Source: an uncultured Dehalococcoidales bacterium (GTDB lineage Bacteria > Chloroflexota > Dehalococcoidia > Dehalococcoidales > E44-bin46). Taken from it: a stretch of DNA of 64,000 nucleotides. Of this stretch, positions 3,712 through 50,249 are shown piece by piece. The notes below the pieces were generated by a model, which ran no database searches, was not told the origin of the DNA, and saw nothing but the letters and a program-made list of their open reading frames with translations. Within the stretch, counting starts at the first letter, position 1; each line of letters starts with the position of its first letter. Location: NCBI GenBank assembly GCA_964627215.1, contig CAZVIZ010000002.1, positions 612 to 64,611 on the forward strand. The letters are read 5' to 3'. The translations under genes and the position numbers were made by a program.

Positions 3712-5121
3712 TTGAATTACAGCCTCAAATTGGGTAAAGTCAGTTCCGTGAGCAGCTCTGAAAAGCAGCGTTCCAGGGTGGTCTATATCTGCCAGCAGTG
3801 CGGCAGGGAGAGCCTTAAGTGGTTGGGGCGGTGTCCCAACTGCCAGGAGTGGAACAGCTTCGTGGAGACCCGCGTGGCGGCCTCCGCGCCTTCCCGCGCT
3901 GCGGCCAAGAGTGTTGCCCCTCCCCGGGAGCTTTCCACCGTATCCACCGAAGCCGAGGAGCGCTTTCCCGTCTCTTTGGGAGAGTTGGACCGCGTGCTGG
4001 GTGGGGGGGTGGTGCCGGGGTCGCTTACGCTCATCGGCGGTGAGCCGGGCATCGGCAAGTCCACACTGCTTCTCCAGGCGGCGTCTCTGGTGGCTGGGGG
4101 GCGGGGTCGGGTGGCCTACGTCTCCGGCGAGGAGACCGAGCGTCAGATTAAGCTCCGGGCGGGGCGCCTGGGGGTGGGAGGAGAAGGGCTGTACGTTATC
4201 GCCGAGACCGACCTGGAGGCCGTTCTCGCCGAGCTTGAGGACATGTCTCCCGACCTGGTGGTGGTGGACTCCATACAGACGGCCTATATGCCTCACCTGG
4301 AGGGGGTGCCGGGCAGCATCTCCCAGGTTAAGGAGTGTACCCTGCGTCTTATGCGCTGGGCTAAAGAGAGTGCCGCGGCGGCCTTCATCGCCGGGCACGT
4401 TACCAAGGACGGTGCCATCGCCGGCCCCAGGGTGCTGGAGCACATCGTGGACGTGGTTCTGTACCTGGAGGGCGAGCGCTTCAGTTCTTTTAGGCTTTTA
4501 AGGTGCACCAAGAACCGCTTCGGCTCCACCAACGAGGTGGGCGTCTTCGAGATGAAGGCCGAGGGGCTTATGGAGGTGGCCAACCCCTCCCGTCTCTTCC
4601 TCGCCGAACGTGACGAGGAGGCCGTGGGCTCCGTGGTGGTGCCCACCATGGAGGGCAGCCGCCCCCTGCTGGTGGAGGTACAGGCGCTGACCAACCTGAC
4701 CACCTTCGGGCTGCCCCGCCGCACCGCCAACGGGGTGGACTTCAACCGCTTGCTCATGCTGGCGGCGGTGCTCTCCAGGCGGGCGGGCTTGAAGCTGGCC
4801 AACCAGGACATAATAGTAAATGTAACCGGCGGCCTTAAGGTGGGCGAGCCGGCGGCGGATATAGGCATAGCCCTGGCCATAGCCTCCAGCTATCGCGATA
4901 GGGCGGTGGCGCCCCACACGGCGGCGCTGGGGGAGGTGGGCTTGAGCGGGGAGGTGCGGGTGGTATCCCACTTGGAGCGGCGCCTTAAAGAGGCGGCTCG
5001 GCTGGGCTTTAAGCGCTGTATAGTGCCCCGGGCCGGGGCCAAAACAGCCGTAAAGGGCATAGAGCCCGTTGCAGTGAGCACGCTTAGAGAGGCCATAAGG
5101 GTGGGGCTGGTGGAGGGGTAA
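3712..5121 (+). CDS. radA: DNA repair protein RadA/Sms
   Basis: Zinc finger CQQCG..x..CPNC, Walker A GEPGIGKST, the KNRFG motif and a Lon-protease-like C-terminal domain. The start is uncertain (TTG 3712, TTG 3730 or GTG 3748). Confidence 0.9.
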   Translation: MNYSLKLGKVSSVSSSEKQRSRVVYICQQCGRESLKWLGRCPNCQEWNSFVETRVAASAPSRAAAKSVAPPRELSTVSTEAEERFPVSLGELDRVLGGGVVPGSLTLIGGEPGIGKSTLLLQAASLVAGGRGRVAYVSGEETERQIKLRAGRLGVGGEGLYVIAETDLEAVLAELEDMSPDLVVVDSIQTAYMPHLEGVPGSISQVKECTLRLMRWAKESAAAAFIAGHVTKDGAIAGPRVLEHIVDVVLYLEGERFSSFRLLRCTKNRFGSTNEVGVFEMKAEGLMEVANPSRLFLAERDEEAVGSVVVPTMEGSRPLLVEVQALTNLTTFGLPRRTANGVDFNRLLMLAAVLSRRAGLKLANQDIIVNVTGGLKVGEPAADIGIALAIASSYRDRAVAPHTAALGEVGLSGEVRVVSHLERRLKEAARLGFKRCIVPRAGAKTAVKGIEPVAVSTLREAIRVGLVEG

Positions 5122-5128
5122 CGCTATT

Positions 5129-6448
5129 ATGACAAACCTGTCGTGTAAATCCACGGTTAACAAACTACTCGAGGGTGGCATAAACTACAGAGGATACAAA
5201 GAGTTAGCGGACTACTTGAGGGAGCAAACTAAAGCGCCACTTGTGGATATTGCCCTAATTAGAACGCCAGAAATTAGGGAGAAGTTTTTCATGGCGATGG
5301 TTGAGCTTCAAAGAGAGTTGGTTCCTCGACATATTGATTTCCCCTCCCTTTATAAAGAAGTGTGGGAGCTTTTTAGAGAAGTTGTGCTAAACAAGTCCAT
5401 ATACCAAGACTCGGCTGAATTAGAGAACAAGGTGTCTGTGTTCTCGAGAGAAGTAAAGAAACCTCTGGTAGCCTTTGATGTAATTTATGAGATTAGGAAT
5501 TTTAATATAGACGGCAGGCACTTTAATCTCGGGGGGGTTGAGGTCTTTGAGCTAACGAGCGAACATTTAGAAAACTTCAGTTTGAATGAGTGGGGTATTG
5601 GTGATGATTGGCAACATAAGGTTGTTGCCAAAGTAGAGATAGACGCTGCGGATTCAAACGCAGCCAATATTATAGGTGATGCTGAAATTACTAGTGCCTT
5701 GGACATTTTGAGGCTTGCTATTAGAAGAGAGTCCCTAACTGGAAGTTCTGACTCCTCATTTTTGTGGGATTTAGGCAATTCTATCGTCATATCAAAGTCA
5801 AGGCTCAAGTTTGGTGTCATGTGCGAGGTATTTGACAACCGCAAAACTCGCCCCTTCATCACAGACCTGAGTAGTATGGTTGAGAAGTCACTGGAAAATG
5901 GAAGCTACTGGCGTTATATACTTGATGCTAAACTACCCCAAGATATACACAGACGTGTGATGAGAGCTATTAGATGGATTTCCCATGGCATTGTTGGGAA
6001 GGACATGGATTACAAGCTGGTAAATCTGTTCACAGCCTTGGAGATACTCCTATTACCTGAAGAAGAGCGCGAAACTGCCAAGGGTAAGGGTGCGCTTATA
6101 GCGCTTAGGCAGGTATTGGTCGGACAGAGCACTTATTGTGAGCCTAAGGGTATATTTAGCCTGTATAAGCTTCGAAACAAGATTATTCATGGCGGTTATC
6201 AAAATATAACGAGCTATTCGGATTACATTCATTTGCTTGCGTGTTGCGTCAATGTTTTGGAAGCAATCCTTCGCCTTTCGCAGAAATACCCAAGTATATG
6301 TAGCTCCAAGGCGTTACTTGATGAGGTGGAGAATAAGGAAACATTGAAAAAGTTTATTGAGGACTACAATTCGGGAAGTCATAAATGCCGTCAAGTTAAG
6401 GACATCGCAAAGAGGCTTCTGAAAAAGTGCTGTTGTGAGAATGAATAA
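5129..6448 (+). CDS. hypothetical protein; C-terminal alpha-helical domain with a HEPN-like R-x4-H motif (candidate RNase/abortive-infection effector)
   Basis: 439-aa ORF in a visibly AT-rich segment. The C-terminal ~170 aa are predicted helical and carry LYKLRNKIIHGG (R349-x4-H354), the hallmark HEPN motif. The N-terminal ~270 aa has no family I can recognise. Confidence 0.55.
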   Translation: MTNLSCKSTVNKLLEGGINYRGYKELADYLREQTKAPLVDIALIRTPEIREKFFMAMVELQRELVPRHIDFPSLYKEVWELFREVVLNKSIYQDSAELENKVSVFSREVKKPLVAFDVIYEIRNFNIDGRHFNLGGVEVFELTSEHLENFSLNEWGIGDDWQHKVVAKVEIDAADSNAANIIGDAEITSALDILRLAIRRESLTGSSDSSFLWDLGNSIVISKSRLKFGVMCEVFDNRKTRPFITDLSSMVEKSLENGSYWRYILDAKLPQDIHRRVMRAIRWISHGIVGKDMDYKLVNLFTALEILLLPEEERETAKGKGALIALRQVLVGQSTYCEPKGIFSLYKLRNKIIHGGYQNITSYSDYIHLLACCVNVLEAILRLSQKYPSICSSKALLDEVENKETLKKFIEDYNSGSHKCRQVKDIAKRLLKKCCCENE

Positions 6449-7121
6449 GACCGAAAAGATAGGCGCCATAATCGCCGCCGCCGGCGGTGGGGAACGCATG
6501 GGTGGGGTGGACAAGATATGGGCCGAGCTGGGGGGCAGGGCGGTGGTGGCCTGGGCGCTTCAGGCATTCTCAGATTCAGGCCTGGTTGATGAAATTGCTT
6601 TGGTATTATGTGAAAAAGATTTGGAGCGGGGGAGGGAACTGGTTGACAAGGAGGGGTGGAAGGGTGTGAGGGTGGTGATGGGGGGGAGGCGGCGGCAGGA
6701 CTCGGTGGCGAACGGGCTTCAAAAGCTTGTTGGCTGCGACTGGGTGCTGGTGCACGACGGCGCCAGGCCGCTGGTGACTTCGGACATAATAGAGCGTGGC
6801 CTTGAGGCCGCCAGGGAGACGGGGGCCGCCGCCGCCGCTGTGCCTGCCACCGATACCGTGAAGGCCGCCGCCCCCGACATGATGGTGCTCCAGACGCCGC
6901 CACGTGGAAATCTGTGGGCTGTTCAGACGCCGCAGGTGTTCTGCTACTCGCTTCTTATGAAAGCCCACCAGAATGCCGCAGACGTCACCGATGACGCTTC
7001 CATGGTGGAGGTGCTGGGGGGCAGGGTTAAGCTCTATATGGGTGCCTATGATAATATTAAGATAACAACCCCATCGGACCTCGCCGTGGCAGAGGCCTTA
7101 CTCAAGGGGCGGATTAAATAA
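6435..7121 (+). CDS. ispD: 2-C-methyl-D-erythritol 4-phosphate cytidylyltransferase
   Basis: N-terminal AIIAAAGGGERMGG nucleotide-binding loop and VLVHDGARP. It is followed directly by ispF. The start is GTG 6435 or ATG 6441, overlapping the stop of the upstream ORF. Confidence 0.9.
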   Translation: MRMNKTEKIGAIIAAAGGGERMGGVDKIWAELGGRAVVAWALQAFSDSGLVDEIALVLCEKDLERGRELVDKEGWKGVRVVMGGRRRQDSVANGLQKLVGCDWVLVHDGARPLVTSDIIERGLEAARETGAAAAAVPATDTVKAAAPDMMVLQTPPRGNLWAVQTPQVFCYSLLMKAHQNAADVTDDASMVEVLGGRVKLYMGAYDNIKITTPSDLAVAEALLKGRIK

Positions 7122-7606
7122 TGGATATGCGTGTAGGCATAGGCTATGATGCGCATCGTCTGGCTGAAGGCCGTCGGCTGGTGCTGGGTGGGGTGGAGAT
7201 ACCCTTCCCCCAGGGGCTTTCCGGCTGGAGCGACGCCGACGTGCTTACCCATGCCATTATGGACGCACTGCTGGGGGCGGCGGGCTTGGGGGACATCGGG
7301 GGACGTTTCCCCCCCGGAGAGCCTGAATACGAGGGCATAGAGAGCCTCAAGTTGCTTAAGCGGGTGGGGGGCATACTTAAAGATAACGGTTGGCAGGTGG
7401 CCAACATAGATGCTACTATTGTAGCCGAGAAGCCCCGCCTGAGCGGGTTCGTGGATGAGATGCGGGCCAACCTGGCGCGGGCGTTGGATGTGAGTGTGGG
7501 GAGGGTGAGCGTGAAGGCGACCACCCAGGAGGGGGTGGGCTTCACCGGTAGGGGGGAGGGGATGGCGGCTCTTGCCACCGCCCTCCTGGAAGCTGCCGAT
7601 AGGTGA
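7121..7606 (+). CDS. ispF: 2-C-methyl-D-erythritol 2,4-cyclodiphosphate synthase
   Basis: MRVGIGYDAHRL...GGVEIP...HSDADVLTHA-type motifs. The ATG overlaps the ispD stop (TAATG). Confidence 0.92.
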   Translation: MDMRVGIGYDAHRLAEGRRLVLGGVEIPFPQGLSGWSDADVLTHAIMDALLGAAGLGDIGGRFPPGEPEYEGIESLKLLKRVGGILKDNGWQVANIDATIVAEKPRLSGFVDEMRANLARALDVSVGRVSVKATTQEGVGFTGRGEGMAALATALLEAADR

Positions 7607-7656
7607 AGCCGAGCTTAAAACCTGGGGGAATATCTCGGTAAGCGAGGTGAGGTTCT

Positions 7657-8289
7657 ATGTCGCTTTGGGAAAGCATCGATAGGGATATACAGGCCGCGCT
7701 GGACAACGACCCTGCTGCCACTGGCAGGTGGCTGGTATTTTTTACCTACCCTGGCTTTCACGCCCGTTTACATCACCGCCTGGCCCACGCCATCTATAAG
7801 GCGGGCTGCCGCTGCCTGGCGCGGGTGGTGGCCGGCGCCAGCCGCTTCCTCACCGGCATAGAGATACACCCCGGCGCCCGCATAGGGGAGGGGCTGTTCA
7901 TAGACCACGGCATGGGCGTGGTGATAGGAGAGACGGCCGAGATAGGCGATAACGTGGTTCTGCACCAGGGGGTTACCCTGGGTGGCACCAGCCATAAGCG
8001 CATCAAGCGCCACCCCACCCTGGAGGACAACGTGGTGGTGGGCACGGGGGCGCAGATAATCGGAGATATAGTCATCGGCGAGGGCTCCAAGGTGGGCGCG
8101 GGCTCGGTGGTGGTGAAGTCGGTGCCCCCCCACGCCACCGTGGTGGGCGTGCCGGGTCGGGTGGTGGCCATAAGGGACCCCGATACCGATACCGTGGAGA
8201 AACTGCCAGACCCTGTGGGTGAGAGGCTGAAGTCCCTGGAGGACAGGTTGTCCGCATTGGAGAAACAGGAGGGAAAAGGGAACAAGTGA
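7657..8289 (+). CDS. cysE: serine O-acetyltransferase
   Basis: Contains the DPAA...YPGFHA N-terminal SATase motif and hexapeptide repeats ([34 protein letters not shown]). Confidence 0.9.
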
Positions 8290-9770
8290 AGGTGCATAAT
8301 ACCCTGTCCGGGAAGAAGGAGGAGTTCATCCCCGGGGAGGATAAAGAGGTTAAGATGTACGTCTGCGGCGTGACCCCATACGACGACTCCCACATCGGTC
8401 ATGCAATGAGCTATATCATCTTTGACGTAATCCGCCGCTACCTGGGCCGTATAGGCTATAAGGTTAGACATGTACAGAATATCACCGATATAGACGATAA
8501 GATTATAAACCGCGCCAACGAGCGCGGCGTGTCCACTGCGGAGCTGGCGGGACGCTTCGCCGCCAGCTACTTTGAGGATATGGAGGCGCTAAACGTCTCC
8601 CCCGCCGACGTATACCCCCTCGCCACCGAGGAGATACCCAAGATAATAGAGGTGATAGCGGGGCTTATAGATAATGGCCACGCCTATCCCGCCGGCGGCA
8701 GCGTATACTTCAGGGTTAAGAGTAAACCAGATTACGGCAAGCTGGCTCACCGCACCCTGGATGCCATGCTCCGCGAGGCGCGGGTAGAGGCGGGTAGTGA
8801 TAAGGAGGACCCCATGGACTTCGTCCTGTGGAAGGCGGCCAAGCCCGGCGAGCCTTCCTGGGATAGCCCCTGGGGGCCGGGGAGGCCGGGGTGGCATATA
8901 GAATGCTCCGCTATGTCGCTCAAGTACCTGGGGGAGAGCCTGGACATACATGGTGGGGGGCAAGATCTGGTCTTCCCCCATCACGAGAACGAGATAGCAC
9001 AGTCGGAGGGGTATACCGGTGTCGTCCCCTTCGTAAAATACTGGCTGCATAACGGGCTGCTTAACCTCGGTGAGGACAAGATGAGCAAGTCCCTGGGCAA
9101 CCTTATAACCATCAAGGATATTTTAAGCAATTACAGCGCAGACGGCCTGCGTATATTCATACTTAGCTCGCACTACCGCAGCCCCCTCACCTACTCACAG
9201 GAAACCCTGGAGGCGGCGGAGAGGGGTGCCGCCAGGCTGAGGCAGGCGGTGGGGGGACGGGGCAGCGGCAAGGGCGATGCGGGGATAGATCGCGAAGCCA
9301 GCCGCCGCCGCTTTACGGAGGCCATGGACGACGATTTCAACACCCCGCAGGCCATCGCGGTGCTGTTTGACCTGGCGCGGGGTATAAACCGCGCCGAGGA
9401 CGGAGGGCTGGACACTAAGGACGCGATATCGCTATTGAGAGAGCTGGGCGGCGTGCTGGGGCTTACCTTTAAGGCCAGGGGAATGCCGGCGCTGGACGCT
9501 ACTCCCATACGGGGGCTTGCCGAGGAGATTGCGGAAAAGGCCCGCGGCGCTGATGCGCCGGGGCTGGCCGGGGAGATAGAGGCGGTGGTGGTGGAGGGGG
9601 CGGGTGGCGATGATGCCGAGAAGGGCATAGAATTGCTCATCGCTATGCGCGGCATACTGCGCAGTCACAAGCAGTATGGCCTCGCCGACGAGGTGCGGGA
9701 GGGGCTGGCCGCCCTGGGGATAGCCCTGGAGGACGGTGCTGCTGGAACTACTTGGAAGAGGAAGGTATAG
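8286..9770 (+). CDS. cysS: cysteine--tRNA ligase
   Basis: Class I signature HIGH (HIGHAMSY) and KMSKS are both present, with a DALR-like C-terminal region. The GTG start overlaps the cysE stop (GTGA). Confidence 0.93.
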
Positions 9771-25183: not shown

Positions 25184-27154
25184 TTAGTCAAGCTCTCGTC
25201 TCATTGCCATGTCGTAGAGAACCCTTTCCCTGGCCTTATCTATGCCTAGCTCCTTGCGCTTTCCGTCTATCTTCTCAATCATAAGATGGGCGGCCTTTAT
25301 GGGGTCTGGCTCGAAGGCCCACATGCCGCCGTAGATCTCGCCGAACTCCTTGAACAGGTGGTCGGTGACCTCCTTGCTGCCCAGGGTGGGCCAGTTGACG
25401 CCGAACACGGTGAACACACCGGAGCCGACGAAGTAATTGCCGATGGCTAGGGCTTTCTCGCTCATCCATTCAGGTGCGGCGCCGACTACGGGCATGTCGC
25501 AGACGTCGTCGCCCAGGCCCCCGTCCTTCACCATGGCGCTGGCGGCGACGAGTATGCGGCTGTTGTCCACGCAGGACCCCAGGTGCAGCACCGGGGGTAT
25601 GCCCACGGCCTCGCACACCGAGGCCAGCCCCTCGCCGGCGTACTCGGCGGCGGCTTCGGGCAGCATCAGCCCGGCCTTGGCGGTGGCCATGGCGGAGCAG
25701 CCGGTCTGGAGCACTAAGACATCGTTTTTGATAAGCTCCTTTACCATACGCACATGGACGTCGTCGTGGGTTACGCGGGCGTTGTTGCAGCCCACCACCC
25801 CGGCCACGCCCCTTATGCGGCCGTTTATTATATTGTCGTTCAGGGGGCGGTATGATGCGCGGTACAGTCCGCCCATAAGGTAGTTGATGGTCTCGTGGCT
25901 GAAGCCCGCAATGAGGTCGGTCTGCTCTTTGGGGATTCTTATATTCTTGCCCCTGTTTTCAAAGTTGTCTATTGCGGTTTTTATTATCTTCTTGGCGACG
26001 TCAGGGGCATGGTGCTCGTCGAAGTCTATGTGGGTGGCGCCCTCTATGTGTGCCCTGGGGTCGGTGGTGATTACCTTGGTGTGGTAGCACTGGGCCACAT
26101 CGGCCAGGCCCTGCATGATACACTGGACGTCCACTACTATGGCCTCCAGGGCGCCGGTGACTATGGCCAGCTCCTGCTGGAGGAAGTTCCCTGCTATGGG
26201 AACGCCGTGGCGCATGAGTATCTCGTTGGCGGTGCAGCACATACCGGCCAGGTTTATGCCCTTGGCTCCCTTGGACTTGGCGTATTCTATAAGCTCCTTG
26301 TCCTGGCACACCACCGCCAGCATTTCTGCCAGCTGCGGCTCGTGGCCGTGGATGATGATATTGACCTCGTCATCTTTCATCACGCCTAGGTTTATGCGGC
26401 TCAAAACCGGTGATGGCGTGCCGAACATGATGTCCTGAAGATCGGTGGCCATCATGCTGCCGCCCCACCCGTCGGAGAGGGCTGTTCTTACGCTCTGCTT
26501 GAGCAGGCTCTTATAGTCCTGGTCCACGCCCATATGGGTGCGGTGCATTGTCTCCACCACCTCGCGGTCTATACCCCTTGGCATCACACCCTGCTTGCGC
26601 CACAGAGCCTGACGCTTCAAGGGGGCGCGTTTGGTCATGATAAGCTCGCCCTCCTGGCGGCCGAATTCCTTCATCACCACCTCGCCGATTTCTACGGCTA
26701 TCTCCTGGTTGGAGCGGTCGCCGATGTCCACGCCGATGTCCAGGGCCAGCTGGAGGAGCTTCTGCTCGTCCTTTATCTCATATCCCTGGGCCTCCCCCTT
26801 GGCTACCAGCAGGAAGGCCTCGGCTACCTTGCGGCCGTGGTCGCTGTGGGCCGCCACTCCACTCGCCACCATGCGGGCGAAGTTGCGCGCCACGATGGTC
26901 TCGGCTGTGGCGCCGCAGACGCCCTTGCGCTTGCCCTTCTCCTCCGGGGTCTCCTCCTTGCCCTTGGGTAGGGGTACACGGCATGGCCCCATACTGCACA
27001 GGCGGCAACAGGTGCCCACTTGTCCGATAGGGCAGGGCTTCATGCCCTGGGCGCGGTCGAAGACCACGCTGCAGCCGTCCTCGGCTGCCTTGTCAATCAT
27101 ATCCAGCGTTGCGTCATCAATGCTGGCCTTTTGTTTTTCTTTTTCTTGTGTCAT
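25184..27154 (-). CDS. cooS: anaerobic Ni-Fe carbon monoxide dehydrogenase catalytic subunit
   Basis: B/D-cluster motif CPIGQVGTCCRLCSMGPCR and C-cluster ligand regions (HGHE, GMCCTANE, GCNN). ATG 27154 lies 1 nt after the fur-like stop. The longer track ORF would overlap that gene. Confidence 0.92.
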   Translation of the reverse strand: MTQEKEKQKASIDDATLDMIDKAAEDGCSVVFDRAQGMKPCPIGQVGTCCRLCSMGPCRVPLPKGKEETPEEKGKRKGVCGATAETIVARNFARMVASGVAAHSDHGRKVAEAFLLVAKGEAQGYEIKDEQKLLQLALDIGVDIGDRSNQEIAVEIGEVVMKEFGRQEGELIMTKRAPLKRQALWRKQGVMPRGIDREVVETMHRTHMGVDQDYKSLLKQSVRTALSDGWGGSMMATDLQDIMFGTPSPVLSRINLGVMKDDEVNIIIHGHEPQLAEMLAVVCQDKELIEYAKSKGAKGINLAGMCCTANEILMRHGVPIAGNFLQQELAIVTGALEAIVVDVQCIMQGLADVAQCYHTKVITTDPRAHIEGATHIDFDEHHAPDVAKKIIKTAIDNFENRGKNIRIPKEQTDLIAGFSHETINYLMGGLYRASYRPLNDNIINGRIRGVAGVVGCNNARVTHDDVHVRMVKELIKNDVLVLQTGCSAMATAKAGLMLPEAAAEYAGEGLASVCEAVGIPPVLHLGSCVDNSRILVAASAMVKDGGLGDDVCDMPVVGAAPEWMSEKALAIGNYFVGSGVFTVFGVNWPTLGSKEVTDHLFKEFGEIYGGMWAFEPDPIKAAHLMIEKIDGKRKELGIDKARERVLYDMAMRRELD

Positions 27155-27155
27155 T

Positions 27156-27602
27156 TTACCCCTCTCCGTCCTCGCTGTTTTGAGCCTGCCCTTTGGGGGA
27201 ATGGGAGTTCTGGCACTGAATACACAGCCCACAGAACTCCAGGCGGTGGTAGCTTATCTTAAAGCCCGTGTTTCTGGCAACCCTTTCATCCAGGGCCTTA
27301 TCCACGGGCTCGTCTATGTCAAACAGGCGGTTGCACCCCTCGCACTTGAAGTGGTAATGGTTCTGCGTCTTGCCGTCGAAGCGCCTCAGGCCGTCCGCCA
27401 GGCTCACCTCAATTATGTCCCCGTCCTTTTTCAACAGCCTCAGGTTACGGTATACCGTCCCCAGGCTGATGTGGGGCATTTCCTCCCTCACCTGGACGTA
27501 TATGTCATCGGCGGTGGGGTGGCAGTCGGTTGCCCGAAGCATCTTCAGGATGCCCTCTTTCTGTTTAGATTTTCTGCGCATTATAAAATACTGTGAGTAC
27601 AC
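27156..27602 (-). CDS. Fur-family metalloregulator embedded in the acs operon
   Basis: Winged-helix segment LGTVYRNLRLL, HYHFKCEGC and CGLCIQC (a CxxC...CxxC structural site). The start is GTG 27602 or ATG 27581. Confidence 0.85.
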   Translation of the reverse strand: MYSQYFIMRRKSKQKEGILKMLRATDCHPTADDIYVQVREEMPHISLGTVYRNLRLLKKDGDIIEVSLADGLRRFDGKTQNHYHFKCEGCNRLFDIDEPVDKALDERVARNTGFKISYHRLEFCGLCIQCQNSHSPKGQAQNSEDGEG

Positions 27603-27622
27603 ATAATAATAACCATTATTAT
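27603..27622. promoter_or_regulatory. Fur-box-like palindromic operator
   Basis: ATAATAAT-AACC-ATTATTAT is a perfect 8-4-8 inverted repeat directly 5' of the fur-like ORF. By hand alignment, 15 of 19 positions match the classical GATAATGATAATCATTATC consensus. Confidence 0.55.
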
Positions 27623-27644
27623 ATAATGAAAGCTGGTTTTAGGG

Positions 27645-27696
27645 AAATATGCCCTGTTCTGTCAAGGCGTGTTGACCTTGGGATTAGGGCATATTT
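27645..27696. repeat. nested inverted repeats in the acsD-fur intergenic region
   Basis: AAATATGCCCT (27645-27655) pairs with AGGGCATATTT (27686-27696). The inner pair GTCAA...TTGAC lies in the loop. This may be an operator, attenuator or processing site. Confidence 0.4.
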
Positions 27697-27717
27697 TATG
27701 AGCCTTCCCTTACCTTC

Positions 27718-28659
27718 TCAGGCGGCCAGCTCGGAGGTTGTCTCCTTTACCAGGCTTATCGCTTCCGGATGCCTCATGATCATTATGTCCGCGCCCGCTA
27801 TTAGCAATACCATAGCCGATATCGCTTCCATGAGGATGCCCCTCTTGGCGGCATCACCCATATTCTGTTCGCCGTCCGGGAGATGAACCTCCTTCGTTTT
27901 CCAGGCGTCGTTGGCGATATTACATATGATGGGGAACTGCAGCTTCTCATCTTCCTGCGTAAGCCCCGCCATCCTCATCCTCTCTATCACCGAGTAGGAG
28001 TACTCTATTCCGTACCCCAGCACGCTGGAGGTGGGATCCATGACTATCTTGCTATCCGGTACACCGAGATTGCCCAGCAGGATATTGAGCTGTTTGGCCA
28101 GGTTGATATCTATGGGGCTGGAGGACACGATGGTGTGGTTGTAGCCGATGGCTGAAGCGCCGACCTTCTTATGGTTTGCCTCCTCCACCGGACCTAACAC
28201 CAGGTTCTTTCCCTGGCATAGCTCGGAAACCGCTTTAAGCACCTCGGTATCCTTGTCGGTATTGGCCGTCCCCCAAACGATTAGAGGCACGTCTATGGCG
28301 TCAGCTACCTTTTTTACCACCTCGGCCGCCTCGGCGGCGCCTCGGTTCTGGCCGTTGGGGTCTGTGCTTATAAGTGAAAGGGCTATCATCTCCGCCCCGT
28401 ATTCGTCTATGCACTTCTTAGCCCAGGCCACGGGATCGTCCTTAACGTCGGCGAAGTGCTTAAGTACTGCGTCGGGCCACTCCTCCGGTGAAGAATCCAG
28501 CACCTCCATGGCTATCTGGGGGGCGTGGGGCATCTCCCCTTCAAACAGGTAGAAGGGGTAGGCGGTCGCGCCGCCCACGGTTATGGACTTGCCTCCGTCG
28601 CCCAGCAGTATTTCCTTTATCTTGCCAGTGTACTGCGTCTTTGGTATCTCTATCGCCAT
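27718..28659 (-). CDS. acsD: corrinoid iron-sulfur protein small subunit
   Basis: 313-aa TIM-barrel protein with a CdhD/AcsD-like N-terminus (IEIPKTQYTGKIKEILLG...ITVGG). It is located in the acs cluster. Confidence 0.85.
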   Translation of the reverse strand: MAIEIPKTQYTGKIKEILLGDGGKSITVGGATAYPFYLFEGEMPHAPQIAMEVLDSSPEEWPDAVLKHFADVKDDPVAWAKKCIDEYGAEMIALSLISTDPNGQNRGAAEAAEVVKKVADAIDVPLIVWGTANTDKDTEVLKAVSELCQGKNLVLGPVEEANHKKVGASAIGYNHTIVSSSPIDINLAKQLNILLGNLGVPDSKIVMDPTSSVLGYGIEYSYSVIERMRMAGLTQEDEKLQFPIICNIANDAWKTKEVHLPDGEQNMGDAAKRGILMEAISAMVLLIAGADIMIMRHPEAISLVKETTSELAA

Positions 28660-28678
28660 CCGTCGCTCTCCTTTAGGC

Positions 28679-28903
28679 TCAAGCCGGGTTCTTTCTCTTT
28701 TCGCTACCGTACCAATCCTTTGAGTACCAGTATCTCTCGCCGGACTCCAGGTACTTCATCTTCTCGGCTCTATCTTCTAGCCTCTCTCTCCACATTCCCA
28801 TCCCTTCGCCCTCAGGCTTCCCCGCCTCGTAAGTCTCTCCCAGCACCTCCACCTTGTCCCGCCCCGGGGCACTCTTGGACTCTACTTGATATTCCACCGT
28901 CAC
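28679..28903 (-). CDS. small hypothetical protein, charged and Trp/Tyr-rich, upstream of acsD
   Basis: 72-74 aa. A strong SD (TAAGGAGG) overlaps the first GTG, and a second in-frame GTG at 28897 has 5-nt spacing from it. A 19-nt gap separates it from acsD. No recognisable family. Confidence 0.5.
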   Translation of the reverse strand: MTVEYQVESKSAPGRDKVEVLGETYEAGKPEGEGMGMWRERLEDRAEKMKYLESGERYWYSKDWYGSEKRKNPA

Positions 28904-28980
28904 CTCCTTACCGGATAGGCTAATAAAGCGTGTTTATCTAGGATGTAGATATTAACAATAAAAAAAAGTAACAGACCACA

Positions 28981-29010
28981 ATTCTAACTTAGGTATTAAA
29001 TCTACGTCAA
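28981..29010 (-). promoter_or_regulatory. sigma-70-like promoter candidate for the small ORF and acsD unit
   Basis: On the - strand: TTGACG (29010-29005), an 18-nt spacer, then TAGAAT (28986-28981). Confidence 0.4.
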
Positions 29011-29027
29011 GCCTGAACCCCCTGAAT

Positions 29028-29067
29028 TATAGGTAACGTTGCCCCGAACAGGGCAACGTTACCTATA
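29028..29067 (-). terminator. perfect 17-bp hairpin downstream of folD (terminator-like, no clear U tract)
   Basis: tataggtaacgttgccc, loop cgaaca, then gggcaacgttacctata. It lies 40 nt after the folD stop. Confidence 0.45.
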
Positions 29068-29107
29068 AAGGCTTGCTTTATGCGTTTTGGCGGGGTATGT
29101 CTCAGGC

Positions 29108-30019
29108 TTAGGCTATACCCGATAGCACTTTGGCCGCCTTAAGGGTGTTGAGCATGAGCATTGTTATGGTCATGGGGCCTACGCCGCCAGGAACAGGAGT
29201 GATGGCCTTGGCCTTCTCCTTAACAGAGTCGAAATCCACGTCTCCGGCCAGTATCCGCTTGCCTTCTGGGGTGGTGCCTATTTGGTTGACGCCCACGTCG
29301 ATCACCACTACGCCTTCCTTAACCATGTCACCGGTGATGGCATTAGCCTTGCCCACGGCGGCGATTATTATATCGGCCCGTTTGGTGTGGAAGGCCATGT
29401 CCTTTGTCCTGGTGTGGCACAGGGTTACGGTGGCGTTGGCGTTCTTGTTCTTCTGGAGCAGTATGTTGGCGATTGGCTTGCCCACGATGTTGCTGCGGCC
29501 CACTACTACCACCTCGGCCCCCTCTATGGGTACGCCGGTGCGGATTAAGAGCTGCCAGACGCCGTGGGGTGTGCAGGGTATGTAGTCCGGTTCGCCTATC
29601 ATCAGCTTGCCTACATTTACGGGATGGAAGCCGTCCACGTCCTTCTTAGGGTCTATGGCGTAGAGCACCTTGGTCTCATCTATGTGCTTGGGCAGGGGCA
29701 GCTGGACCAGGATACCATGTATCTTGGGGTCATTGTTCAGCTTGTCGATGAGCTTTAATAGATCCTCTTCCTTGGCGTCCGCAGGCAGGTCATGTCGTTC
29801 GGAGTAGAAACCCAGCGCCTTGGAAGTCTTCTCCTTGGATCCTACATAGACCTGGGAGGCGGGGTCGGCGCCTACCAGGACGGTTACCAGCCCCGGCACC
29901 ACACCGTGCTTATCTTTAAGCTCGGTGACATCCTTCTTTATCTCCTCACGAATCTCCTTGGCGACCTCGGTTCCGCTTATAATCTCTGCTGCCATTTTCT
30001 CTGTTAAAACCTCCTTCAA
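29108..30019 (-). CDS. folD: bifunctional methylene-THF dehydrogenase / methenyl-THF cyclohydrolase
   Basis: Motifs PGLVTVLVGADPASQVYV, GILVQLPLP, VVVVGRSNIVGKP and TPVPGGVGPMT. The start is TTG 30019 or, more likely, ATG 29995 downstream of AAGGAGG. Confidence 0.92.
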   Translation of the reverse strand: MKEVLTEKMAAEIISGTEVAKEIREEIKKDVTELKDKHGVVPGLVTVLVGADPASQVYVGSKEKTSKALGFYSERHDLPADAKEEDLLKLIDKLNNDPKIHGILVQLPLPKHIDETKVLYAIDPKKDVDGFHPVNVGKLMIGEPDYIPCTPHGVWQLLIRTGVPIEGAEVVVVGRSNIVGKPIANILLQKNKNANATVTLCHTRTKDMAFHTKRADIIIAAVGKANAITGDMVKEGVVVIDVGVNQIGTTPEGKRILAGDVDFDSVKEKAKAITPVPGGVGPMTITMLMLNTLKAAKVLSGIA

Positions 30020-30118
30020 TATATATTAAAAAATAGCATCCTTGGTTTACTTATCGTTTAAAGGCCAAAACCATCTAATTCTAATACAATTCGCCCACTA
30101 ATTAAAGCCTTTAGCGAA

Positions 30119-30877
30119 TTATCGGGTTAGGAGACTTCTCATAAGCTCGTCCACCGCGCTTACCGCCGTGGAGGTAGGGGGTAGCTCTAACAGCGGCTTG
30201 GACTCCAGGTCGTAGCGGACTATATCGTCGTCGGCGGGGATTATGGCTGCGGGCTCTATACCCTGTTTTTGAAGCTCCTCCGCAACGGCCGGGGCGAGCG
30301 TATCGGGGACCATGTTTATTATGACCGATTCCCGCTTGACCCTGAGCCTCAGTTCGGCTATCAGCTGTCTTATCCTGGCGATGGTGCGTACTCCCTTCAC
30401 GGAGTGGTTAGAGACGATTAATAGCTCGTCTATGTCCTGGGTAGTGCGACGAGAAAGGTGCTCCATGCCGGCCTCGTTGTCCATCACCAGGTAGGTGTAG
30501 TTCTTGGCCAGGGCGTCGGCCATCTTGCGTACTATCAGGTTGGGGTAGCAGTAGCACTCTGGCCCCTCCCCCCGCCCCATGGTGAGCAGGTCCATGCCAT
30601 CGGCTTCGGTGATGGCCTCGTTAAGCTTGTACTCCAGGTAGACCTCCTTAGTCATTCCTGCGGGTATGGCTATCTTAGTGCCTTGGAACTCGTCCAGTAT
30701 CATGCCCACGGTGCGCTCTGCCTCCAGCCCCAAGCTCTCCCCCAGGTTGGCGTTGGGGTCGGCGTCTATGGCCAGTATGGGTCCGTCCCCCCTGGCTTTC
30801 AGGTGACGGATTATGATGCTGGAGATGGATGTTTTACCCGTGCCGCCCTTGCCGGCTACGGCTATACTAAGGGTCAT
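30119..30877 (-). CDS. cooC: CooC/AcsF-type nickel-insertion ATPase (copy 1)
   Basis: Deviant Walker A AGKGGTGKTS and the CxC metal motif (ECYCYP), in a MinD/ParA-like fold. Confidence 0.85.
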   Translation of the reverse strand: MTLSIAVAGKGGTGKTSISSIIIRHLKARGDGPILAIDADPNANLGESLGLEAERTVGMILDEFQGTKIAIPAGMTKEVYLEYKLNEAITEADGMDLLTMGRGEGPECYCYPNLIVRKMADALAKNYTYLVMDNEAGMEHLSRRTTQDIDELLIVSNHSVKGVRTIARIRQLIAELRLRVKRESVIINMVPDTLAPAVAEELQKQGIEPAAIIPADDDIVRYDLESKPLLELPPTSTAVSAVDELMRSLLTR

Positions 30878-50172: not shown

Positions 50173-50249
50173 TGGCGACCCCGAGGGGATTTGAACCCCT
50201 GATCTCCACCGTGACAGGGTGGCATGTTAGACCGCTACACCACGGGGCC
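50173..50249 (-). tRNA. tRNA-Asp (anticodon GTC), CCA encoded
   Basis: The reverse complement folds as a cloverleaf: acceptor GGCCCCG/CGGGGTC, anticodon arm CCACC-CTGTCAC-GGTGG, T arm AGGGG-TTCAAAT-CCCCT, and a terminal GCCA. Confidence 0.9.

Follow-up and report, generated by a model that had tools for sequence, protein, structure and literature searches.

What is a gene of foreign appearance doing between radA and ispD, packed tightly among the core genes of a bacterial operon? The question is raised by a contig of an uncultured Dehalococcoidales bacterium (GenBank assembly GCA_964627215.1, contig CAZVIZ010000002.1, positions 612 to 64,611 of the forward strand), of which the 64,000 nucleotides (nt) analysed here are called the window; coordinates without a locus name are positions in it. 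An earlier note, made by reading the sequence without database searches, had singled out an AT-rich open reading frame (ORF) of 439 amino acids (aa), which we designate X, and had proposed that it encodes a horizontally acquired effector with a C-terminal HEPN RNase domain. We favor, with moderate confidence, the view that X is an accessory, horizontally exchanged, stand-alone conflict gene, in which a HEPN-type RNase effector is joined to a new N-terminal module, and that it resides in an accessory and defense hotspot at the radA-ispD junction. The RNase activity, dimerisation, trigger and anti-phage function that we ascribe to X are, throughout, predicted ones.

A gene of foreign composition inside a compact operon

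The genes and signals concerned are the following.

3712..5121 (+): radA, encoding the DNA repair protein RadA (Pfam Zn_ribbon_LapB, AAA_25 and ChlI/Lon_C); the upstream core flank of the variable slot
5112..5118 (+): GGAGGGG, a Shine-Dalgarno-like run read from the sequence, within the end of radA and 10 nt upstream of the X start codon
5129..6448 (+): X, an ORF of 439 aa with an ATG start; a low-GC accessory gene of an unnamed HEPN-like family
6441..7121 (+): ispD (Pfam IspD, E = 3.7e-64); the downstream core flank

X is marked as foreign by both its composition and its codon usage. Its G+C content (GC) is 0.422 against a window mean of 0.578 (z = -5.8), the lowest among all 1320-nt segments of the 64 kb, the runner-up having a GC of 0.514; the AT-richness that had been estimated by eye thus stood up to a sliding-window calculation, and so did the deviant codon usage. 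The GC of third codon positions (GC3) is 0.457 in X but 0.705-0.806 in six neighboring genes, and synonymous codon choice is very different (ATT 0.51 against 0.09 in the neighbors, AGA 0.37 against 0.03, CTG 0.16 against 0.48), so the anomaly exceeds what amino acid composition could produce. The homologs of X share this property, with GC values of 0.35-0.46 against 0.50-0.56 in the flanking genes, lower in every locus examined. The second-lowest GC stretch of the window, 25184-30877 on the reverse strand (GC 0.51-0.53), encodes Prismane/CO dehydrogenase, CdhD, FolD and a CbiA/CooC-like ATPase; we considered it as possible foreign DNA and rejected this, since it is an ordinary Wood-Ljungdahl-type cluster.

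A single ORF does lie between radA and ispD, both of which are identified by Pfam, but the description of X as isolated did not survive inspection of its boundaries. The radA stop codon (TAA, 5119-5121) is followed after a 7-nt gap by the start of X, and the X stop overlaps the ispD ATG (6441) by 8 nt: ATGAATAA. Promoter- and terminator-like sites around X do not exceed the expectation from shuffled sequences, and no sigma-70-like promoter is predicted between radA and X. As the earlier note had stated, no integrase or MNT gene is found among the neighboring ORFs, and the flanks contain short chance repeats but no att-like repeat. From the Shine-Dalgarno-like run, as read from the sequence, and the lack of a predicted promoter between radA and X, we infer co-transcription and translational coupling; that is, X is probably transcribed and translated as part of the radA-ispD operon.

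An undescribed protein family

A word-indexed search of 5.8 billion proteins yielded 41 homologs, none of them named or assigned a Pfam domain and all about 430-450 aa long. An exhaustive search with HMMER, run against 1.84 billion cluster representatives, found 251 sequences at E <= 1e-3, likewise unnamed, most of them about 440-460 aa long and aligned over both halves at 20-30% identity, and some shorter or differently built and sharing the C-terminal domain alone; the size of the family is about 250 clusters at 50% identity. When a 96-sequence superfamily alignment (A2) was used as a profile against the word-indexed database, it returned the close family and nothing further. The relatives that carry taxon labels come from Dehalococcoidia, Dehalococcoidales and Thermomicrobiales metagenome-assembled genomes, the exceptions being two contigs in bins labeled Actinomycetota and Deltaproteobacteria, so that the family, as sampled by these searches, is apparently restricted to Chloroflexota.

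No NCBIfam model matches X, and searches of PHROGs and of the PDB sequences gave nothing meaningful. Abi_2 (AbiD/AbiF) and related Pfam and PADLOC models have no match in X, in 40 close members or in 96 superfamily members. The N-terminal 265 aa, for which the earlier note could name no family, indeed have no match in Pfam, PDB or BFVD by sequence or by structure. By these scans, X represents an undescribed family that is absent from Pfam, NCBIfam, PADLOC and PHROGs. The best Pfam match, which is short, is to HEPN_RiboL-PSP (PF18735; E = 3.4e-4, 21 bits against a gathering score of 28.4), over aa 340-380, that is, 41 residues around the Rx4H motif. The same family is the only one that recurs among the relatives, in 5 of 40 close members and 6 of 96 superfamily members, and HEPN_MAE_28990 is matched once among the 96. 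The profile searches that the earlier note had recommended for HEPN thus did find a HEPN family, but below threshold, and drew a blank with PADLOC.

A C-terminal domain with the hallmarks of HEPN

The full-length protein was modeled with AlphaFold2 from a 40-sequence alignment (predicted local distance difference test score, pLDDT, 86; predicted template modeling score, pTM, 0.82), and secondary structure was assigned with DSSP. The model consists of three parts, a helical N-terminal subdomain (aa 1-110), an alpha/beta subdomain (aa 111-265) and an all-helical C-terminal domain. A separate AlphaFold2 model was made for residues 262-439 (pLDDT 89.8, pTM 0.87), which was needed because full-length Foldseek searches were dominated by long alignments that we disregarded as spurious (MavC/MvcA, DOCK proteins and designed repeats, TM-score about 0.1). 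The parts of X, with the residues discussed below, are as follows.

5129..5458 (+): N-terminal helical subdomain, aa 1-110; AlphaFold2 helices 7-18, 23-32, 47-64, 71-87 and 95-109
5459..5923 (+): middle alpha/beta subdomain, aa 111-265; AlphaFold2 strands 114-123, 132-134, 137-141, 165-173, 214-222 and 232-235, and a long helix 176-201
5924..6298 (+): HEPN-like core, aa 266-390; H1 271-289, H2 293-308, inserted helix 317-332, H3 339-355, H4 363-386
6041..6043 (+): codon of E305, the invariant acidic residue of HEPN helix 2, from alignments
6086..6109 (+): codons of K320 to R327, basic residues on the helix inserted between H2 and H3, from alignments
6164..6190 (+): codons of Y346 and then R349-N350-x3-H354, the predicted catalytic motif at the end of H3, from alignments and model
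6299..6445 (+): C-terminal extra helices, aa 391-439, including the KKCCCENE tail; AlphaFold2 helices 393-398, 403-414 and 421-437

Foldseek comparison of the domain model with the PDB placed it closest to the HEPN protein AF_0298 (2hsb; probability 0.92, target TM-score 0.56, root-mean-square deviation (rmsd) 4.1 A), and further HEPN matches were 4nqf (probability 0.84, TM-score 0.57), HepT (5yep; 0.51 and 0.46), HEPN-MNT (8xeh) and MtlR (6kcr). The full-length query also picked out 2hsb (probability 0.90), along with Csm6. With both queries, the matches that combine an rmsd of 4-5 A with a probability of at least 0.5 are exclusively HEPN proteins. The four-helix bundle that the earlier note had made out by eye is thus reproduced in the predicted structure, with three additional helices after H4.

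According to the published definition (Anantharaman et al. 2013, PMC3710099), HEPN domains carry an Rx4-6H motif, with a polar residue after the arginine, where core helix 3 ends and the loop to helix 4 begins; a second conserved acidic residue lies in helix 2, typically as Ex3[K/R], and an insert between helices 2 and 3 is typical. X agrees with this definition point by point, the context of the acidic residue excepted. Its motif, R349-N-K-I-I-H354, is encoded at 6173-6190, with the H354 codon CAT at 6188-6190 as checked in the sequence, and has a polar residue after the arginine (N in X, S in 81% of the superfamily). In both AlphaFold2 models, H3 closes at H354-G355 and is followed by a loop (356-362) and then H4. 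The earlier note had put the motif at the beginning of the last long helix, whereas in the models it closes core helix 3, at the C-terminal end; the existence and conservation of the motif were confirmed. E305 lies in H2, at a position that fits the conserved acidic residue of HEPN helix 2.

In a protein as large as X, a lone R....H can be expected by chance, and it is conservation across homologs that makes the motif meaningful. R349 and H354 are invariant in the 40 close homologs. Among 101 homologs of 20-55% identity, E305, K320, Y346 and H354 are conserved in 100%, R349 in 99%, R327 in 98%, and W283 and D294 in about 95%; E305 is also present in 100% of alignment A2. All these residues fall within the C-terminal domain, which is the best conserved part of the protein, at 59% identity in the close family (compared with 40-51%) and 31% in the superfamily (compared with 17%). 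Within the close family, the middle alpha/beta subdomain is the least conserved of the three structured domains (40%) and the C-terminal tail stands at 38%, and the N-terminal subdomain averages 17% identity across the superfamily. The KKCCCENE tail, which overlaps the ispD start and had been flagged as unusual, is confined to this copy and is variable among homologs, so we rejected it as a functional feature.

Could this be a different helical domain altogether, an enzyme or a binding module that uses the invariant E, K, R, Y, R and H for some other chemistry, such as the modification of nucleotides or phosphoesters, and whose Rx4H pattern is convergent or coincidental? The Foldseek E-values of the domain query are weak (0.7-2) and not significant on their own, its TM-scores reach only 0.43-0.57, and by E-value many unrelated helical bundles are similar. 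In addition, X matches no HEPN family at the Pfam gathering score, the single sub-threshold match covers about 40 residues, a profile search of PDB sequences gave no significant match, the position four residues after E305 is Leu, so the usual Ex3[K/R] form does not occur, and the invariant K320, R327 and Y346 are outside the classical HEPN signature. All of this weighs against the HEPN assignment. Nevertheless, we regard a non-HEPN domain as rather unlikely: low rmsd and high probability single out HEPN proteins with either query, motif, acidic residue and insert all lie where the definition places them, the sole recurrent Pfam family among the members is a HEPN family, and a weak two-segment alignment with ApeA (see below) falls on equivalent helices. 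On the strength of the models and alignments, the C-terminal domain is probably a HEPN domain, an assignment that is well supported but that the weak Foldseek E-values keep short of proven.

The radA-ispD junction is a variable slot

In five other lineages, a homolog of X with 45-55% identity stands directly between radA and ispD-ispF-(cysE)-cysS, and the stop and start codons often overlap. At first sight, such an arrangement suggests a lineage-specific housekeeping partner of RadA or of the isoprenoid/cysS operon, such as a factor for RNA processing or repair: the order radA-X-ispD, its stop and start codons overlapping or abutting, is shared by six divergent lineages whose RadA proteins are 67-72% identical, and the divergence of X (45-55% identity) is only moderately ahead of that of its flanks (58-72%). 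DisA/YacL-type genes occupy this position in Firmicutes, and X was at first taken as their possible replacement.

A survey anchored on RadA ruled out the notion, suggested by the early synteny, of a conserved, vertically inherited neighbor of radA. Among 80 metagenome loci with RadA 60-72% identical to that of the window, 59 were informative, and X was present in none of them (0/59). In 17 of the 59, radA and ispD are adjacent; in 37, other inserts of 0.3-3.8 kb lie between them (19 of 0.3-1 kb and 18 longer than 1 kb), and in five no ispD lies within reach. Where the slot is empty, the ispD ATG overlaps the radA stop by 8 nt. The X-carriers are scattered on the RadA tree. Thus, the RadA of locus L005, which has X, is 97% identical to that of L084, which has a different cargo gene of 231 aa, and 94% identical to those of L070 and L077, where the slot is empty; likewise, the RadA of L001 (with X) is 94% identical to those of L080 (empty) and L087 (a 359-aa cargo). 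Nucleotide homology of 88-94% between alleles persists until no more than 10 nt from the radA stop and returns within a few nt of the ispD start. From the scatter on the RadA tree and from these breakpoints it follows that X is a precise, presence/absence-polymorphic cassette.

These data largely refute a housekeeping role, which we now consider very unlikely. Genomes that share 94-97% RadA identity with X-carriers have no gene or other genes in the slot, homologs of X occur in unrelated contexts, frameshifted and nonsense copies exist, and a long-standing core gene would not be expected to keep so low a GC and GC3. All four points on which the earlier note had staked its proposal were examined, and the predicted fold is HEPN-like, R349 and H354 are conserved, the composition is anomalous, and the gene is not core at this position.

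Forward-oriented cargo begins on or just after the radA stop (TGATG, TAAATG, ATGATG), which keeps the coupling intact. In L084, the allele that holds the 231-aa cargo, the radA stop is still overlapped by a copy of the 5' end of ispD (~1455-1495, ATGACTAACCAGCAAAAAGCAGG...), and a second, functional ispD start follows the cargo (~2225-2260, ATGAAGACTAACCAGCAAAAGGTCGG...); this short target duplication could be a clue to how cassettes are inserted. In L025, L037, L064 and L075, where the cargo ends with a reverse-strand gene or includes AbiU, a conserved TTTTGCTTTATAAT (extended -10-like) is found ~20-45 nt upstream of ispD, which suggests, as far as the sequence goes, that ispD acquires a promoter of its own once the coupling to radA is broken.

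We also noticed a GC-rich hairpin with the consensus CCCCCTCTCC-TTTGAA-GGAGAGGGGG, dispersed intergenically in Dehalococcoidia contigs, with 29 matches in the fetched loci and none in the window. It is present in some empty radA-ispD gaps but dispersed elsewhere as well and was therefore rejected as a slot-specific site; it could be an element of the repetitive extragenic palindrome (REP) type or a terminator.

L068:6390-6418, hairpin
L070:6448-6476, hairpin
L077:1943-1971, hairpin
L087:2043-2140, hairpin
L001:385-412, hairpin
L008:4102-4522, hairpin (others elsewhere)

What else occupies the slot? The alternative cargo is usually low in GC, too. It includes defense-type genes, namely AIPR/AbiU (PADLOC, 1e-29), NYN/HEC-09 (1e-85), TIR proteins and HicAB, as well as an HNH/RecA-dependent-nuclease-like protein, a weakly SIR2-like protein and an XRE regulator. 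Metabolic genes (cupin, NmrA-like, FAA hydrolase, alpha/beta hydrolase and MFS) are found as well, and because of them the slot is to be regarded as a general accessory hotspot that extends beyond a pure defense island. The association of X with known defense genes in the variable slot is accordingly suggestive but non-exclusive.

Further cargo ORFs of the same slot are unannotated:

L025:4437-5279, 281 aa
L052:2904-3392, 163 aa
L055:6986-7687, 234 aa
L084:1520-2212, 231 aa
L042:6370-7317, reverse strand, 316 aa
L046:2729-3553, reverse strand, 275 aa
L063:4851-5687, 279 aa

None of these ORFs matches Pfam, and none of those scanned matches PADLOC; they are candidates for additional conflict or defense genes.

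Selection, decay and contexts outside the slot

For the one suitable pair of homologs, the ratio of nonsynonymous to synonymous substitution rates (dN/dS) is about 0.23, which indicates purifying selection; contigs encoding identical proteins show 0 nucleotide differences and are thus uninformative on selection. Some copies are nevertheless decaying. The P0017 copy (L005:7661-8952) has a frameshift near residue 369, the remaining ~65 residues being readable in another frame at 66% identity; this allele is nucleotide-identical in L005, L006 and L007, and because these are three independent assemblies, the frameshift is real and no assembly error. Another copy contains an in-frame stop. Purifying selection combined with some decaying copies is typical of accessory conflict genes. 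A truncated X is also seen in L012 (European Nucleotide Archive (ENA) ERZ25039515 contig_38554), where clpC, OAD_beta, radA and X are all split; this is probably a frameshift-rich long-read assembly, and the truncation there is not to be counted as a pseudogene.

That the X of the window is itself a decaying, non-functional remnant of foreign DNA, as its low GC, its atypical codon usage and the frameshifted or truncated homologs might be taken to imply, appears highly improbable: the copy is intact and of full length, it keeps the invariant residues, the dN/dS value is low, and it shows tight coupling signals and a Shine-Dalgarno-like site.

Beyond the slot, relatives of X are located after purL/purQ, beside thyA/dcd, between AMMECR1 and MgsA, and among miscellaneous genes, and more distant ones adjoin DUF499 and a recombinase, lie near HerA or follow a DEAD/MZB helicase. 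In every context examined, members of the superfamily are solitary, as expected of the stand-alone gene that the earlier note had envisaged. On the contig of P0060 (Joint Genome Institute (JGI) 3300075153), a relative (7001-8350) starts 15 nt after a DEAD/Helicase_C/WHD_HRQ1/MZB helicase of the MrfA/Hrq1 type (4701-6986), and a Gp49/HTH toxin-antitoxin-like pair lies downstream of it. There are hints here of a recurrent link to DNA-repair ATPases, namely RadA, MgsA/RarA, HerA and the helicase.

Proposed mode of action and biological meaning

ApeA, DARNA, PrrC and RloC are characterised stand-alone HEPN defense proteins, and a mode of action for X can be proposed by analogy with them. The N-terminal part, comprising the helical and alpha/beta subdomains, would keep the nuclease inactive until a signal derived from infection or damage is sensed. 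The HEPN domains would pair into a composite active site, in which R349 and H354, aided by N350, E305, K320, R327 and Y346, would cleave RNA (tRNA or mRNA) in a metal-independent manner, the outcome being growth arrest or abortive infection. By its architecture, and through guilt by association with the hotspot, X is a candidate for such a defense or abortive-infection role.

Apart from the library and structure scores discussed above and the metabolic cargo, several observations weigh against the view that X is a horizontally exchanged defense effector. PADLOC, with its defense models, returned 0 matches to X, a relative of X could be found in none of the sequenced phages, plasmids and viral contigs searched, hallmarks of mobile elements are missing from the flanks of the gene, and neither an antitoxin nor any other control of a potentially toxic RNase is evident. 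Moreover, the presence/absence polymorphism was seen among relatives of other X-carriers, outside the lineage of the window, whose RadA is at most about 72% identical to anything retrieved; for that lineage itself, we infer the acquisition of X from its composition and from the behavior of the slot in the other lineages.

Alternatively, X could be a HEPN-type RNase toxin without an anti-phage role, that is, an orphan or self-regulated toxin, a growth regulator that responds to stress or DNA damage from within the clpC-radA operon, or a selfish addiction gene. To such a toxin the structural and conservation evidence for HEPN applies equally, and the position of X directly behind radA, with predicted translational coupling, the relatives beside DNA-repair-type ATPases and helicases (MgsA/RarA, HerA, the DEAD/MZB helicase), the HicAB toxin-antitoxin cargo in the same slot and the absence of a PADLOC match to X are all compatible with it. 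However, a cognate antitoxin gene is missing beside X in about 15 contexts, the large, variable N-terminal region suits a sensor better than a simple toxin, and known defense genes are alternative alleles of the slot. We consider this possibility improbable, although it deserves to be taken seriously, and continue to favor a conflict gene with an anti-phage effector.

One may go further and speculate that the radA-ispD junction of Dehalococcoidia is a dedicated in-operon cassette slot, in which one to a few conflict genes are swapped from stop to start codon without an integrase, the coupling is re-created and expression is hard-wired to the clpC-radA stress and DNA-repair operon, and that X is the founder of a Chloroflexota-specific HEPN defense family whose new N-terminal sensor responds to a signal of DNA damage or DNA degradation, much as deoxydinucleotides are sensed by ApeA and SSB-bound ssDNA (single-stranded DNA) by DARNA. 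This bolder scenario is a long shot.

If the favored view is correct, X adds an unrecognised HEPN nuclease family and a new sensor module to the single-protein immune effectors. The Dehalococcoidia are slow-growing, mostly uncultured bacteria, and their defense against phages is, to our knowledge, almost unstudied. The slot is useful by itself, its unannotated cargo being a source of candidate new defense genes, and, in view of its stop-to-start breakpoints, one may ask by what route cassettes move in and out of an operon without recombinase signatures.

Comparison with known systems

With the HEPN superfamily at large, the C-terminal domain of X shares the four-helix up-down core, the Rx4H motif at the end of helix 3, the polar residue after the arginine, the acidic residue of helix 2 and the insert between helices 2 and 3. 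It differs in scoring below the Pfam threshold, in its three extra C-terminal helices, in a glutamate outside the Ex3[K/R] context, in its own invariants K320, R327 and Y346, and in lacking an MNT partner. In the HEPN-MNT systems (HepT/MntA), a small HEPN protein of ~130 aa is encoded beside its MNT antitoxin, whereas X has 439 aa and its neighbors are radA and ispD; no MNT gene is present in any context of an X homolog that we examined.

The earlier note had thought of ApeA, a single-protein HEPN tRNA anticodon nuclease (bioRxiv 10.64898/2026.01.26.701840; PDB 9hxj is Ec3ApeA). ApeA is composed of an N-terminal helical domain, a PafA-like alpha/beta Mid domain and a split HEPN domain, forms decameric or dodecameric rings and is activated by 5'-phosphorylated deoxydinucleotides, bound in a pocket between the N-terminal and HEPN domains, to cut the tRNA anticodon loop (bioRxiv 10.64898/2026.01.26.701840). 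X resembles it as a stand-alone gene without a partner and, by its predicted structure, in the order of a helical, an alpha/beta and a C-terminal HEPN-like domain with insertions but is ~140 residues shorter. The HEPN_Apea and ApeA_NTD1 Pfam models and the PADLOC ApeA models match neither X (E <= 10) nor the 40 close members (E <= 0.1) nor the 96 superfamily members (E <= 1), and no ApeA chain is among the top 50 Foldseek matches. A fragment of Ec3ApeA found no word-sharing candidates in the protein database and no tblastn matches in plasmids or phages. Against 9hxj, the superfamily profile gave a weak alignment (E = 0.15) in two segments, on the ALE helix and the Y..R....H helix. Judged by these comparisons, membership of X in the ApeA family is unsupported, though the two may be distantly related.

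DARNA (PD-T7-3) is a HEPN tRNase activated by ssDNA that acts by abortive infection (bioRxiv 10.64898/2026.02.22.705581). Like X, as predicted here, it is a single polypeptide of ~450 aa in which a HEPN RNase is joined to a large non-catalytic sensor domain; unlike in X, its HEPN domain is N-terminal (R117x4H122), so the order is reversed, and X shows no sequence or PADLOC match to it.

As in other defense and accessory hotspots flanked by core genes, one junction holds alternative cargo in close relatives, AbiU, HEC-09, TIR and HicAB among it. Unlike the usual hotspots, the radA-ispD slot lies inside an operon, between translationally coupled genes, with breakpoints at stop and start codons; it usually holds one to a few cargo genes (up to about six ORFs) and lacks an integrase, an att-like repeat and a tRNA gene. 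The only tRNA gene of the window, tRNA-Asp(GTC) at 50173-50249 on the reverse strand, lies far from X and has no connection with the slot. Effectors of the single-protein HEPN type are well known from variable regions; what is new here is the X family itself, its unmatched N-terminal domains, its apparent restriction to Chloroflexota and the in-operon slot in which cassettes are exchanged from stop to start codon.

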